Assembly (NCBI GenBank): GCA_964344485.1
Contig: CAYFNF010000003.1
Span: forward strand, 148,467 to 212,466
DNA from: an uncultured Gammaproteobacteria bacterium
GTDB lineage: Bacteria; Patescibacteriota; Patescibacteriia; UBA9570; XYC2-FULL-38-9
DNA length: 64,000 bases
Direction: 5' to 3'
In this document: positions 1 to 48,399 of the stretch, piece after piece
How the letters are laid out: the number at the start of each line of letters is the position of its first letter
Position numbering within the stretch: the first letter of the stretch is position 1
Made by a program: the position numbers and the translations under genes
Notes under the pieces: model-generated
Database searches by the model: none
The model's input: the letters and a program-made list of their open reading frames with translations, nothing else
Told to the model about the DNA's origin: nothing

Positions 1-111
1 GCCCAGGAATGTATTCTCGGCAAGCGAAAAATTAACATCCTCTAATACTGGGTGCCCAGTGCTATAGGAGAACTGCACGTCTTGTATGGATACAATTTCT
101 TTAGATGTCAT
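1..111 (-). CDS. ABC transporter ATP-binding protein, N-terminal fragment (gene runs off window start)
   Basis: Minus-strand ATG at 111-109 opens MTSKEIVSIQDVQFSYSTGHPVLEDVNFSLAENTFLG. This is the usual region preceding the Walker A motif of ABC ATPases. The frame is open to position 1. Confidence 0.5.
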   Translation of the reverse strand, partial: MTSKEIVSIQDVQFSYSTGHPVLEDVNFSLAENTFLG

Positions 112-6263: not shown

Positions 6264-7232
6264 ATGTATGGAATTGAAGCAGAGTATCTGATGACGAGTC
6301 ATCGCATCCAAGATGTGCTCAAGCTGCAGCTCCCGGGCGTGACCGCCGAGTTCTTCGACTTCATGGTCGAGATCATCACGGATCCGCACGCGCGTGCACG
6401 TCAGGCTGTGGACCAGCTGGAGCGTCGGGTGCAAAGAATGCGTCGACGAGGTGTGGAGCTCGAGCAGTGGGCGTCCTTCCCGGACCGAGTTCAGCCGATT
6501 ACGTTCACGGACGTGGTCGCAGACAGCCCGTACTACCGCTGGGTCTATGACCAAGCGTGTAGATTCACGGGTCATGAGCCGCTGGACCTGCACCATGTGG
6601 GCATGCACCTGAACTACTCGTGCTCGGACATGAGCGAAAACGAGCTGGTGCACGCGGTGAACTGGTGTCGGTGCATGAACTTCTTGTTCATCCTGTTCTC
6701 AGCAAACTCACCGTTCCAGAATGGGCAGTCCTGCGGGCTACTGTCACGACGGTCATATCAGTACCCCAACCGATACGACGTCCCGCTGTGGGAAAGCGCC
6801 GTCGCGTTCAAGCGCTGGATCCAGGAGCAAGAAGCGTTGTATCGCATCTACCCTGGAAAAGGTCGCTGCTGGATGACGGTCTGCCCGCGCTTAGAGGATA
6901 ATGATTTCCGCAAACCGATTCAACGGATCGAACTGCGATCGTTAGACTCAGGCACCAATGTCCGCTTCGGTGTTGTGCACGGGTGCTGCAAGCTACTCGA
7001 GCGCATTGTCTTGCGCGCACGCCAAGGAGCGCCCCTGCCAGCGCAACTGAACGAACTGCAGCACAACGATCGAGAGGTCTCGCGGCTCGGAGCAAGCGCA
7101 TGGGTACGCTTGAATGGGCAAGAGTTCTGCGTGCAGCAGCTCGCTGAACAATGGGCAGCGGGTATCGACACGCTGGAGCAGATATTAACGCACGGATGCG
7201 CAGCACAATCGTCCTTGCGCTACTGCGTTTAA
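6264..7232 (+). CDS. Carboxylate-amine ligase, glutamate-cysteine ligase family 2 (YbdK-like) (high-GC island B)
   Basis: The N-terminal YGIEAEYLM and EFFDFMVEIITDP..ARQAVDQLERRV follow the GCS2 pattern (G-x-E-x-E, then E...E..T.P with a helical region). At 322 aa it is shorter than typical YbdK. AAAGGAGG lies 7 nt upstream of the ATG. Line 6361-6420 has 38/60 G+C. Confidence 0.65.
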   Translation: MYGIEAEYLMTSHRIQDVLKLQLPGVTAEFFDFMVEIITDPHARARQAVDQLERRVQRMRRRGVELEQWASFPDRVQPITFTDVVADSPYYRWVYDQACRFTGHEPLDLHHVGMHLNYSCSDMSENELVHAVNWCRCMNFLFILFSANSPFQNGQSCGLLSRRSYQYPNRYDVPLWESAVAFKRWIQEQEALYRIYPGKGRCWMTVCPRLEDNDFRKPIQRIELRSLDSGTNVRFGVVHGCCKLLERIVLRARQGAPLPAQLNELQHNDREVSRLGASAWVRLNGQEFCVQQLAEQWAAGIDTLEQILTHGCAAQSSLRYCV

Positions 7233-7327
7233 CTCTCTGCAACACAAAGAGAACATGGTCTAGTATGAGCCACACATCATACTTTTTTTCTTTCTTCTAA
7301 ACTGCGCCTACGAATAATAAAACGGTA

Positions 7328-8551
7328 TTATTTCATTCTGAACTTCTTCCATGGGCTCCACTTGCTCCACCCAGCATCATTGCCGCATCGCACTCTGAAA
7401 CGATAGTACTGTTTACTCTTCACGAATTTCTTTGACTTTTTCAGAAATTTTGAATTAGTAGTAAGTCCTTTAAACTTTTTCACAGATGTAAATTTCCCGT
7501 TTGCTTTCTTTTTTTGTAACACTGCTTGATAGGTATCGGCATTTGCTTTCGCTTTCCACCACAACTTTGCTGACTTCTTCTTTTTCTTTTTCACTTTCAG
7601 ATGCTTCTTTTTCTTGATCTTGCTTGGTGCAGTGAGTTCATTAATTGTAAAATTTGCTAATGCATAATCTTCTGCTGAATCTGCTGCGCCATCAGTGGTC
7701 ATAGCAACACTATGCGCTCCGGCAATCCCAGCAACAGCATCACTGATCAATAAATCATACGCATCTTCATTACTTTTAGCTACGTCGGTAAGGACCTCAC
7801 AACTGAGTACAGAATTCTGACTGAGGTCATACGTTAAAATCTCATCTAAAGTGCCTTTAGAATTGTCTATAGTTGCATCAGTTAGATCCCACCCTGATTC
7901 ACTAGGCGATTTATTCTCTGCAACAAACACAATGCTTAGCTCTTCTCCGCTAGATAATCCACGGCTAAGCGTAAAATAGAGTTCTAGATCCAGTGTAGAG
8001 CCGGCGGTTGCCTCAGTTGGAGAAACTGATAACGAACCTACGGCATTTCCAAGGCCTTGGATGGACACAGTATCATCAGTCATGGTTGCATTCGCACTTT
8101 CACTCAGAGGCTGCGTTGTAACTCCAAAGCGAATTGACGTTGCCTCATCAGGATTCACCGCATCTGCTAGGGTGACGGTATACTTGTCTGCGGGGAGTTT
8201 TGCGGATAACGTTAATACAGTGCCCCTGCCATCAAGCACTGGTGAAAAAATAAAATTGGAGTTGCCAATAGATCCCTCTGATGAAGGAACCACATTTTGT
8301 AAATTTACATACTCCGGACCGTCGTCTTCTGTAGAGAAAATTGAGATAGTTGAACCGCTGGGTAGATCTACGTTAGTAGTGACGGCGATAGTATACGTCT
8401 CGGTTTCCCCAGCAATAGAAGCTGTTGGTGCAGCGGATACTTCTGATATATTTGCATCTTCCGTTCCTTGCATGCTAAATGCTTGCGCAGATGATGGCGC
8501 GTACACCAGGACTGCTGCGATAGCGAGTGTAAGCAAGATTGTTTTTTTCAT
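7328..8551 (-). CDS. Secreted surface protein with a poly-lysine linker and a C-terminal fibronectin type III-like domain
   Basis: Signal peptide MKKTILLTLAIAAVLVYAPSSAQA. The body is S/T/D/E-rich. The linker is KIKKKKHLKVKKKKKKSAK. The FN3-like end is LWWKAKANADTYQ...YYRFRVRCGNDAGWSKWSPW. Confidence 0.7.
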   Translation of the reverse strand: MKKTILLTLAIAAVLVYAPSSAQAFSMQGTEDANISEVSAAPTASIAGETETYTIAVTTNVDLPSGSTISIFSTEDDGPEYVNLQNVVPSSEGSIGNSNFIFSPVLDGRGTVLTLSAKLPADKYTVTLADAVNPDEATSIRFGVTTQPLSESANATMTDDTVSIQGLGNAVGSLSVSPTEATAGSTLDLELYFTLSRGLSSGEELSIVFVAENKSPSESGWDLTDATIDNSKGTLDEILTYDLSQNSVLSCEVLTDVAKSNEDAYDLLISDAVAGIAGAHSVAMTTDGAADSAEDYALANFTINELTAPSKIKKKKHLKVKKKKKKSAKLWWKAKANADTYQAVLQKKKANGKFTSVKKFKGLTTNSKFLKKSKKFVKSKQYYRFRVRCGNDAGWSKWSPWKKFRMK

Positions 8552-46980: not shown

Positions 46981-47523
46981 TTATAACTTGAACATGCGGA
47001 TTGCAGTATCTCCGGCTGACTCCTCTTCTCTCTCAAGATCTTCATCGAGAAAATCCAGAAGCATCTTTCGTAAGGTGACTGGATTCTTGTCTCGCAGTGG
47101 AATCGAAAATTCTCCGCGTAGAATAGTATTTTTTGGTTTTATATAGAGCTGCTTAATTAACGGTGGTTCATAAATAACAGCAAATGACTCGATCTCACGA
47201 TAGATATAGAATCTATCACCAATCTGTACGCCGGTTTCATATATCACAAACGGTAGAATTGCAGGGTCGGAACGATGGTGTGTAAAAACAATCAACGCAA
47301 TGAGTAGAATGATTAGTGCAAACAAGAAATTACCATCTGCAATTGCATAGATCAGCAGACCACCTCCGATGAGGATGGCAAAGAAATACCAAATCGGTCC
47401 ACGTTCGTGTTTTTCATACTCTGGGAACTCCCATTGTTCTAGGACGCTTCCACGTTCAATGGGGTTTACCCCCATGCGAATGGACCGCTCTCGGTCTTCA
47501 TCTGTAAGGATTCTTTCTGGCAT
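46981..47523 (-). CDS. Hypothetical membrane protein
   Basis: 180 aa with two adjacent TM segments (WYFFAILIGGGLLIYAI, FLFALIILLIALIVF) followed by a soluble C-terminal domain. Confidence 0.55.
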   Translation of the reverse strand: MPERILTDEDRERSIRMGVNPIERGSVLEQWEFPEYEKHERGPIWYFFAILIGGGLLIYAIADGNFLFALIILLIALIVFTHHRSDPAILPFVIYETGVQIGDRFYIYREIESFAVIYEPPLIKQLYIKPKNTILRGEFSIPLRDKNPVTLRKMLLDFLDEDLEREEESAGDTAIRMFKL

Positions 47524-47594
47524 ACATACGTATTATAGCATTTTTTTTATCGAATGAAAAGGGGATATTTCAACTGTTTTTTACTAGATTTTTA

Positions 47595-47622
47595 TTGACT
47601 TTTTTAAAAAAATCGTTATAGT
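47595..47622 (+). promoter_or_regulatory. Promoter TTGACT-16-TATAGT upstream of the RNA gene cluster
   Basis: TTGACT at 47595-47600 and TATAGT at 47617-47622, about 32 nt upstream of the 129-nt element. Confidence 0.45.
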
Positions 47623-47654
47623 TAGTAGCGCACGTTTCAGTTTGAGTGATATAT

Positions 47655-47783
47655 GGAGAGGTAGCTGAGTGGGTTCGAGCGGGCAATAAGTGAATGCATT
47701 TCTGCATTCACGGCCGCGAGAACGGGCGAACGATGCTGCAAAGCAGCCGTGAGTCCCGGATGAAAGCGATGAAATACCTCTCT
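47655..47783 (+). ncRNA. Unassigned structured RNA candidate or degenerate tRNA-Ser-like element (129 nt)
   Basis: The 5' end GGAGAGG/TA/GCT-GAGTGGGTTCG-AGC/G copies the acceptor and D-arm of the two downstream tRNA-Ser genes. The 3' end TACCTCTCT pairs with the 5' end. The ~95-nt interior has no anticodon arm or T-arm but contains perfect hairpins: GTGAATGCA-TTTC-TGCATTCAC (47690-47711) and GCTGC-AAA-GCAGC (47735-47747). Confidence 0.35.
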
Positions 47784-47811
47784 TGGCTTCATTTCAATAT
47801 AGTTCTAACTT

Positions 47812-47903
47812 GGAGAGGTGGCTGAGTGGTTGAAAGCGACGGATTGCTAATCCGTTATATCGGTATTTAGCCGGTATCGAGGGTTCAAATCCCTCCCTCT
47901 CCG
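47812..47903 (+). tRNA. tRNA-Ser (anticodon GCT)
   Basis: A 92-nt class II tRNA: GGAGAGG/TG/GCT-GAGTGGTTGAA-AGC/G/ACGGA-TTGCTAA-TCCGT/23-nt variable arm/GAGGG-TTCAAAT-CCCTC/CCTCTCC/G. Confidence 0.9.
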
Positions 47904-47927
47904 CAGGACCGATTTTTTTGTACGTCT

Positions 47928-48014
47928 GGAGAGATGACAGAGCGGTCGAATGTGACGGTCTTGAAAACCGTTGGGCCTTCACGGGTCCCGTGGGTTCGAA
48001 TCCCACTCTCTCCG
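47928..48014 (+). tRNA. tRNA-Ser (anticodon TGA)
   Basis: An 87-nt class II tRNA: GGAGAGA/TG/ACA-GAGCGGTCGAA-TGT/G/ACGGT-CTTGAAA-ACCGT/18-nt variable arm/GTGGG-TTCGAAT-CCCAC/TCTCTCC/G. Confidence 0.9.
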
Positions 48015-48015
48015 C

Positions 48016-48399
48016 ATGACCATACCTTTTCTTATTTCTAACATAACAATTGTCCTCCTCTTTGTCGGACACTTGTACTATGGAGATAAAGAAATAAAAC
48101 GAATTGAACCAAGGGATTCATCTGTTAATCAAGGTCTTTGGACATTGGCACGAGTTGCATGGCACTGGGTATCTTGGGACTTATTGTTCATTGCGATACT
48201 CATGGCCTTAGTAAATTTTACAGGTGTTTTTTCAGGGAATGAAGCTATTGTACAAAAAATTATCGCGGTTTACATCATTGGAGTTTCCGTCTCTTGGACA
48301 ATCACCACTTGTATATCTCGGCCATGCGAGAAAAAATTCGTTATGTTTATTCCTGCTGCGCTGATTATTCTGAGTATAGGCATACTGGCTTTTTTCTAA
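48016..48399 (+). CDS. Hypothetical membrane protein (127 aa)
   Basis: The ATG at 48016 comes immediately after the tRNA, and the ORF-track start at 47971 would overlap the tRNA. Four hydrophobic segments. Confidence 0.4.
   Translation: MTIPFLISNITIVLLFVGHLYYGDKEIKRIEPRDSSVNQGLWTLARVAWHWVSWDLLFIAILMALVNFTGVFSGNEAIVQKIIAVYIIGVSVSWTITTCISRPCEKKFVMFIPAALIILSIGILAFF

Follow-up and report, generated by a model that had tools for sequence, protein, structure and literature searches.

New non-coding RNAs are known to arise from transfer RNA genes, with few examples in bacteria. The locus described here raises the question of whether a piece of a tRNA-Ser gene has become such an RNA, and if so, what the RNA might do. 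The 129-nt element in question occupies positions 47655–47783 of the 64,000-nucleotide stretch of DNA that was analysed as a whole (hereafter, the window), between a promoter and two tRNA-Ser genes. Two full homologues serve for comparison throughout, one from the genome assembly GCA_018813245.1 (hereafter L002) and the other from a Candidatus Kerfeldbacteria MAG (hereafter L020).

Position and predicted fold of the element

The element starts 32 nt after the end of a sigma-70-like promoter. The features of the locus, with the helices numbered as in the rest of the text, are as follows.

47595–47622 (+), sigma-70-like promoter TTGACT-16-TATAGT, predicted to drive the element and the tRNA-Ser genes
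47623–47654 (+), untranslated leader from the promoter to the element, 56% identical to that of L002; no feature was found in it
47655–47783 (+), the element, 129 nt, a two-hairpin insert within a tRNA-Ser 5′ fragment
47655–47672 (+), tRNA-Ser-derived 5′ frame, 17 of 18 bases identical to tRNA-Ser(GCU) 47812–47829 and conserved in L002 and L020; it comprises the acceptor 5′ strand GGAGAGG (47655–47661), U8 and A9, the D-stem 5′ strand GCU (47664–47666) and the D-loop residues GAGUGG
47673–47723 (+), insert arm P2, from the MFE fold and covariation in three sequences
47673–47676 with 47720–47723, P2 outer helix GUUC/GAAC
47677–47678 with 47718–47719, tandem G-A/A-G in the P2 arm, invariant
47679–47682 with 47714–47717, helix P2a
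47690–47698 with 47703–47711, P2b, a perfect 9-bp hairpin with the loop UUUC
47724–47757 (+), insert arm P3, from the MFE fold and covariation in three sequences
47724–47726 with 47755–47757, P3a, GGG/CCC
47730–47732 with 47748–47750, P3b, ACG/CGU
47735–47739 with 47743–47747, P3c, GCUGC/GCAGC with an invariant AAA loop
47758–47769 (+), GGA followed by UGAAAGCGA, which together supply the end of the D-loop on its 3′ side, the 3′ strand of the D-stem (AGC, 47765–47767), G26 and A27
47770–47783 (+), tail with the closing strand UACCUCUCU (47775–47783), the partner of 47655–47663
47784–47811 (+), spacer to tRNA-Ser(GCU), without a terminator
47812–47904 (+), tRNA-Ser(GCU), the functional gene behind the element (ARAGORN; Rfam tRNA, 65.9 bits)
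47928–48015 (+), tRNA-Ser(UGA), the second gene of the unit (ARAGORN; Rfam)

The promoter, the paired ends, the 9-bp hairpin with the TTTC loop (47690–47711) and the hairpin GCTGC-AAA-GCAGC (47735–47747), all of which had been pointed out in a preliminary description of this DNA, are present in the sequence as described. The 129-mer folds with an MFE of −54.6 kcal/mol (z = −4.69), and none of 200 dinucleotide shuffles folds as well; the minus strand folds less well, at −45.4 kcal/mol. The ends, GGAGAGGTA (47655–47663) and TACCTCTCT (47775–47783), form 9 bp, of which the first is G1-U, and the 27-mer at the 5′ end of the element is unique in the window. The spacer contains a second TATAGT at 47798–47803, 8 nt 5′ of tRNA-Ser(GCU), for which no −35 box was found and which is absent from the output of the promoter scan. 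Neither tRNA-Ser gene of the window encodes the 3′ CCA (47904–47906 and 48015–48017).

Descent from tRNA-Ser and comparison with known RNAs

When bases 19–106 of the element are removed, the remaining sequence, GGAGAGGUAGCUGAGUGG joined to UGAAAGCGA, matches positions 1–18 and 20–28 of tRNA-Ser(GCU) at 26 of 27 bases; UGAAAGCGA is identical to positions 47831–47839 within that gene. Read straight, with the insert left in place, the match falls to 22 of 27 bases for tRNA-Ser(GCU) and to 15 of 27 for tRNA-Ser(UGA). The proposal that the start of the element is nearly identical to the first 26 nt of both tRNA-Ser genes thus holds only in part, and best for tRNA-Ser(GCU) once the insert is taken out. 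A covariance model built from the three copies of the element also matches six different real tRNA-Ser genes through model positions 1–18 and 107–129, with the 88 positions in between deleted. Given this alignment and the 26/27 match, the element is a tRNA-Ser 5′ fragment that includes the acceptor 5′ strand, U8, the D-stem GCU/AGC, D-loop residues and G26, and represents the remnant of a duplicated tRNA-Ser(GCU) gene that keeps tRNA positions 1–28. The 88-nt insert stands in place of a single D-loop nucleotide, and its boundaries are clean.

This assignment changes the reading of the D-arm. In the preliminary description, the D-arm was drawn locally as GCT-GAGTGGGTTCG-AGC, with AGC at 47678–47680; L020 has AGG instead, and element positions 25–28 covary with positions 60–63 as helix P2a. 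It is the distal AGC at 47765–47767 that is homologous to the 3′ strand of the tRNA-Ser D-stem, so that the supposed interior of about 95 nt is mostly the 88-nt D-loop insertion. The D-arm expected of a tRNA, with conserved A14, G18 and G19, is represented in each of the three copies by GCU...AGC and GAGUGG, with the insert in its loop. Downstream of the insert and the D-stem, nothing is homologous to the anticodon, variable or T arms, and with these arms lost, the element cannot decode. Inspection of the sequence bears out the earlier statement that a 7-nt anticodon loop and a T-arm are lacking: no anticodon arm with a 7-nt loop is found (the loop of P2b has 4 nt and a variable sequence), and a T-arm with a GTTCRANYC loop is absent from the window and from L002, with L020 containing only a relic after a nested tRNA. 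Compared with the tRNA family (RF00005), the element thus shares with tRNA-Ser the 26/27 match over positions 1–18 and 20–28, including U8, A14, G15, G18 and the GCU/AGC D-stem, as well as the promoter and the transcription unit, but differs in having the 88-nt D-loop insert, in lacking the anticodon, variable and T arms, and in going undetected by tRNA models.

The checks against Rfam and ARAGORN that had been proposed earlier, including the intron and pseudogene modes, yield nothing for the element. A search of the whole window with 4227 Rfam models at the gathering score identifies only real tRNAs, and relaxing the threshold to E<=10 for 47550–47850 and for L020 7180–7600 adds only noise to the real tRNAs. 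ARAGORN in the default, intron and lowered-threshold modes detects nothing credible for the element. In agreement with the earlier view, the element derives from tRNA-Ser; by these results, it is neither a tRNA nor a tmRNA nor a member of any Rfam family.

Several specific assignments were tried and rejected. A group I or group II intron in a tRNA is not compatible with the size of 88 nt, with the lack of a hit to any intron family at E<=10, or with the product, because only tRNA positions 1–28 remain after removal of the insert. No small self-cleaving ribozyme (hammerhead, twister, pistol, hatchet, HDV-like) matches the window or L020 at E<=10, and by eye, the order of the hammerhead core, CUGANGA, stem II, GAAA, does not fit. 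A k-turn or box C/D RNA, SRP RNA, RNase P RNA and a retron ncRNA were dropped by eye, for want of core motifs or partner genes. A coding function is rejected because 1–2 nt indels separate the copies and no frame is common to them. A minus-strand RNA and the 5′ UTR of the divergent gene for a 180-aa protein are rejected as well: the promoter-like site of that gene lies between the gene and the element, L020 has no such gene downstream, and the minus strand is the poorer folder of the two. In the window, matches to a trans-encoded 3′ piece (CCTCTCYNCCA) occur at chance level. A riboswitch is not among these rejected assignments: the junction of several helices is conserved and contains invariant purines, the scan detected no terminator-like site from the element to the tRNA, and the sole hint of a switch is the alternative between the D-stem, P1, and a further hairpin, P4.

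A tmRNA was rejected as well, given that the element has A3-U70 rather than G3-U70, no T-arm and no frame conserved between the copies, and that ARAGORN in its tmRNA mode and Rfam are both negative. When set against the general tmRNA consensus, the element resembles the tRNA-like domain in that an acceptor 5′ strand is followed by a stemless D-loop analogue, GGNUUCGA, leading into a long helix; in L020, the far end also has a T-arm relic and GCCA. The differences are the A3-U70 pair, the lack of a conserved tag frame and of pseudoknots, and the length of only 129 nt. Allo-tRNAs have an anticodon arm. The variants with 8/4 or 9/3 acceptor/T branches also have a T-stem (PMC5389517); the window shares with them a 9-bp acceptor-type helix and a metagenomic origin, but no 3-bp T-stem or anticodon loop can be drawn for the element. 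In particular, a 9/3 allo-tRNA was rejected because the 13 nt before the closing strand, GAAAGCGAUGAAA, cannot form a 3-bp T-stem with a loop, and there is no anticodon arm.

The literature on tRNA-derived elements offers two further points of comparison. Patescibacteria are rich in tRNA introns, namely group I introns in the anticodon loop (35/36), which are full-size ribozymes that leave a complete tRNA (PMC13011429). The element is likewise a structured insertion in a tRNA gene from the same phylum, patchy and missed by the standard tRNA finders, but its insert has 88 nt, sits in the D-loop, has no 3′ exon in its host and matches no intron model. tRNAOther of Bacillus cereus is described as a predicted pseudo-tRNA that flanks a pathogenicity island and has a cellular role (PMC3399842). 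The element would be similar as a retained tRNA-derived RNA that does not work in translation; in contrast to tRNAOther, it has lost three arms and gained a structured insert, and the two are unrelated in sequence. A literature search identified no description of the element.

Homologues, covariation and selection

The search for homologues and covariation in related genomes that had been suggested earlier yields both: two full homologues, and base pairs changed on both sides. The L002 copy lies at 2680–2814 on the minus strand (123.6 bits with the covariance model) and the L020 copy at 7288–7425 on the plus strand (122.2 bits), each behind a promoter and 20–60 nt 5′ of a tRNA-Ser gene on the same strand. 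In L002, the element follows the same promoter as in the window (86% identical) and precedes tRNA-Ser(GCU); in L020, it stands behind TTGATT-17-TACAAT, 21 nt before tRNA-Ser(CGA). Two other retrieved sequences, L003 and L023, come from the same organism as L002, and the three are counted as one relative.

The contigs of relatives were fetched through the family of the neighbouring 180-aa protein (window 46981–47523, minus strand), and twelve such contigs were looked up; among these, the full element is present only in the clade of the window and L002, and the 180-aa proteins of the element carriers form one clade. In most relatives with the same neighbouring gene, the same promoter stands directly before tRNA-Ser, with no element in between, and the element is therefore dispensable. 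According to the preliminary description, absence from close relatives would point to a plain pseudogene; such absence is indeed the case for most relatives with this gene, but the element is kept in L002 and L020. The closest relative, L031, with a neighbour protein 73–75% identical, has a contig that ends 29 nt into a possible divergent copy (1–29, minus strand). The contig end lies inside GGAGAGGTGCCTGAGTGGGTTGATTGCGA; the stretch resembles the start of the element and differs in the otherwise invariant GTTCGAG (GUUCGAG), and it is preceded by a leader of about 100 nt unlike that of the window.

A strict-pattern scan of 185,579 species genomes identified seven stretches, two of them real (L020, and L023 of the L002 organism). 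The same kind of scan gave seven stretches in metagenomes, none homologous according to nhmmer and none beside a tRNA, and one stretch in viruses, unrecognised by nhmmer and without a tRNA. The scan patterns required exact blocks, so that the resulting family size is a lower bound. A blastn search of phage and plasmid collections found no match. When the 127-aa downstream protein and the L020 neighbour served as queries in searches for homologues, nothing but the queries themselves was returned. With one copy in the 64 kb of the window (filters off), one in 20 kb of the L020 contig and two true matches in 185,579 genomes, a multi-copy mobile repeat of the MITE or REP type is rejected. The family is rare and patchy, with three distinct full sequences, and on present evidence, the element is a rare, lineage-restricted candidate.

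The window matches a metagenome contig (ENA ERZ930070) and probably comes from a member of the Patescibacteria. Its genes include ClpC-like and ComF-like genes and many that encode Pfam-less proteins; there is no integrase, transposase or homing endonuclease near the element, nor does any conserved neighbouring protein hint at a partner. The divergent 180-aa protein is Pfam-less and apparently membrane-bound. The 43 members of its family (one labelled Patescibacteria and one Omnitrophica) come without exception from metagenomes or MAGs of uncultured bacteria and are usually encoded beside tRNA-Arg(GCG) and tRNA-Ser genes. Serine tRNAs with A34 would be unusual in bacteria. In several relatives (L005 2265–2356, minus strand; L007 1755–1844, minus strand; also L008, L009 and L010), ARAGORN reads a tRNA-Ser with the anticodon ACT, alongside a normal tRNA-Ser(GCT) and tRNA-Ser(TGA).

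The two arms of the insert are recovered by several approaches. Among the single-sequence folds, that of the window shows both arms, that of L002 shows P2, and that of L020 shows P3, or both arms when a longer context is included. RNAalifold finds both P2 and P3 on a structure-blind MAFFT alignment, in which 92.9% of the cells pair, compared with 30–44% with slid partners; 8 pairs show changes on both sides, and none of 500 shuffles reaches the observed values, the shuffle control being one that ignores relatedness. A hand alignment, made with the structure in mind, has nine pairs changed on both sides. Each of the 8 pairs of P2 and P2a forms in all three sequences, and 2 of these pairs are changed on both sides; P2b contributes 2 more such pairs, and P3 contributes 4–5 among the window, L002 and L020. 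With three sequences, these compensatory changes are suggestive rather than statistically rigorous support for the predicted fold of the insert. The tandem G-A between P2 and P2a is invariant in all copies, as is the AAA triloop, and GAAAGC is invariant in all three; the 4-nt loop of P2b is free in sequence. The invariant tandem G-A speaks for pairing at the RNA level and not for a DNA palindrome, whereas the lack of any G-U pair in P2 or P3, together with two A-C mismatches that are G-U on the other strand, speaks against it.

The degree of conservation varies sharply along the locus. Between the window and L002, identity is 64–66% for the 180-aa neighbour protein, 86% for the promoter, 76% for the insert, 89% for UGAAAGCGA, 35% for the tail with the closing strand and 25% for the spacer. 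With spacers 25–35% identical and the insert 76% identical, the insert is under selection rather than in decay. Purifying selection acts on the insert and the surrounding junction and not on the closing strand, and what is maintained is the tandem G-A, the AAA triloop, GAGUGG and GGAUGAAAGC, rather than a tRNA function.

The ends of the element behave differently. Taken alone, the 9-bp closing helix exceeds chance only weakly (P ~0.06): when the 51 nt downstream, which are rich in pyrimidines, undergo dinucleotide shuffling, a 9-bp run arises in 6% of the shuffles. The aligned closing helix in L002 and L020 is weaker and rich in G-U pairs, and in L002, no strong partner for the 5′ strand was found anywhere nearby. 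In L020, an 18-bp perfect inverted repeat (7277–7294 with 7557–7574) joins the 5′ strand of the element to ACCCUCC-G-CCA, a partner on the far side of the complete tRNA-Ser(CGA) and of a T-arm-like relic. Hairpin P4 uses the 3′ strand of the D-stem and so competes with P1, the two being mutually exclusive. L002 and L020 form this hairpin well, with two compensatory differences, and the window forms it poorly. Since the closing helix and P4 differ among the copies, the outer architecture varies, with only P2, P3 and the junction sequences common to all. The earlier argument against random decay accordingly stands as far as the internal stems are concerned, these being kept by compensatory changes in two other genomes, and falls for the closing helix, which is the least conserved part.

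The L020 locus shows some additional complexity. An inner perfect repeat of 15 bp (7439–7453 with 7526–7540) lengthens the tRNA acceptor stem by 8 bp, and the outer repeat encloses the element, the whole tRNA-Ser(CGA) and the T-arm-like relic, so that the arrangement looks like a tRNA nested in a tRNA-like RNA. Upstream of the element, at 7199–7273, there is a second tRNA-Ser 5′ relic (positions 1 to ~35) with a different GC-rich D-loop hairpin (7213–7251). As this relic also carries a D-loop hairpin, D-loop insertions recur at the L020 locus.

Possible roles and biological meaning

Taken together, these observations indicate that the element is a real, conserved, structured RNA derived from tRNA-Ser that matches no described RNA family. 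Among the possible roles, we tentatively favour that of a non-coding RNA, structured and stable, that is set free from the tRNA-Ser precursor; in it, tRNA-derived helices would clamp the two arms, which would present a surface for binding a partner. In all three genomes, the element lies within a tRNA-Ser transcription unit, in the same orientation and with no terminator before the tRNA. Transcription from the tRNA-Ser promoter would make it the 5′ portion of the precursor, from which RNase P would release it as a leader by cutting at the 5′ end of the downstream tRNA-Ser. The arms, clamped by the acceptor-like closing helix and by the D-stem, might then offer a binding surface for a protein or RNA partner, with the RNA presumably being stable. 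The phage T4 species 1 and 2 RNAs, encoded in the tRNA cluster, and the Escherichia coli 3′ETS-leuZ are stable small RNAs that come from tRNA precursors. These are, like the element, non-tRNA RNAs co-transcribed with tRNAs, with ends owed to tRNA processing enzymes; unlike them, the element is itself built on a tRNA fragment, and there is no known relation in sequence or structure.

In every copy, a tRNA-Ser of the same transcription unit follows directly, which is also compatible with a leader that acts in cis, only within the precursor, on the folding of the downstream tRNA-Ser or its maturation by RNase P or RNase Z, for example through alternative P1 and P4 pairing, and that might be a three-way-junction sensor. 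The 5′ strand is identical or nearly identical to the acceptor 5′ strand of the tRNA and can compete for the tRNA 3′ strand (−14.0 kcal/mol, compared with −13.6 kcal/mol for its own closing strand), P1 and P4 are mutually exclusive, and the conserved purine-rich junctions resemble an aptamer core. Nevertheless, an expression platform such as a terminator or a Shine-Dalgarno sequence is lacking, and the 5′ strand shows no covariation with the local tRNA (GGAGGGU versus GGAGGAG in L020). The window is unable to form P4, in close relatives the same promoter serves the same tRNA-Ser genes with no element in between, and we know of no riboswitch before a tRNA gene; a cis-acting role is possible but unlikely. 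The clean boundaries of the insert, with one D-loop nucleotide replaced, suggest another origin: the 88-nt module may be a selfish or intron-like insertion with the D-loop of tRNA-Ser genes as its target. It would have inactivated this copy, the 3′ two-thirds of which were since lost while the intact neighbouring tRNA-Ser covers the function. The patchy distribution, in the clade of the window and L002 and in a Kerfeldbacteria MAG but not in relatives at a similar distance, the second L020 relic with its own D-loop hairpin, the nesting of relics around an intact tRNA, and the abundance of tRNA introns in Patescibacteria (PMC13011429) fit such an origin. Yet 88 nt is far below the size of any known self-splicing intron, Rfam detects no intron or ribozyme at E<=10, each locus (the 64 kb of the window, the 20 kb of the L020 contig) has a single copy, no mobility genes are found nearby and no phage, plasmid or viral matches were obtained. 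Moreover, the window and L002 copies are orthologous and 76% identical while their spacers are randomised, which requires host-level selection or ongoing activity, so that this origin appears rather improbable.

Seryl-tRNA synthetase ignores the anticodon, and the element might accordingly be a non-decoding mimic of tRNA-Ser that is bound or charged by this or another tRNA enzyme, with a role in regulation or otherwise outside translation and with the long arm standing in for the variable arm. The equivalents of G2-C71, A3-U70 and C11-G24 are kept in the window, the 9-bp helix and the 3-bp D-stem would give a 12-bp stack with the length of the tRNA acceptor/T branch, and in L020, the 5′ strand pairs with ACCCUCC-G-CCA, with a T-arm relic before it. 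Precedents exist in allo-tRNAs with 9/3 branches (PMC5389517) and in the pseudo-tRNA tRNAOther (PMC3399842). Against a mimic, a T-arm is lacking in the window and in L002, the window combines G1-U72 with a discriminator U and lacks CCA, conservation does not extend to the closing strand, the L020 helix runs 11 bp past the would-be 5′ end, unlike a free acceptor end, and ARAGORN finds nothing even at lowered thresholds; we consider this role to have little probability. A plain decaying tRNA-Ser pseudogene with fortuitous hairpins and no function would account for the dispensability of the element in most relatives, for the lack of conservation of the 3′ part and the closing helix, and for the deviation of the possible truncated L031 copy in the otherwise invariant GUUCGAG. 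It does not account for an insert that remains 76% identical across genomes with spacers 25–35% identical and recognisable in a distant Kerfeldbacteria genome, for the 8–11 pairs kept through changes on both sides, or for the invariant tandem G-A and triloop, and is disfavoured as very improbable. A bolder proposal, for which the chances seem slim, is that the two-hairpin module is a new, small type of tRNA-Ser D-loop insertion, minimal and intron- or ribozyme-like, or else that the whole RNA is a non-decoding tRNA-Ser-derived adaptor on which tRNA enzymes such as RNase P, the CCA-adding enzyme or SerRS would act.

The theme of non-coding RNAs derived from tRNAs is already known; what this locus would add is a tRNA fragment kept as the frame for a conserved insert, in bacteria with very small genomes and little spare DNA. 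If the adaptor proposal were true, the nested ‘tRNA inside tRNA-like RNA’ of Kerfeldbacteria would be the two-piece form of the adaptor, and if the insert is intron-like, it would widen the range of sizes and of insertion sites known for such elements. If, as in the reading that we favour, the RNA is stable and has a partner, the element would represent a new family of tRNA-derived RNAs and a handle on the tRNA-Ser biology of uncultured Patescibacteria.
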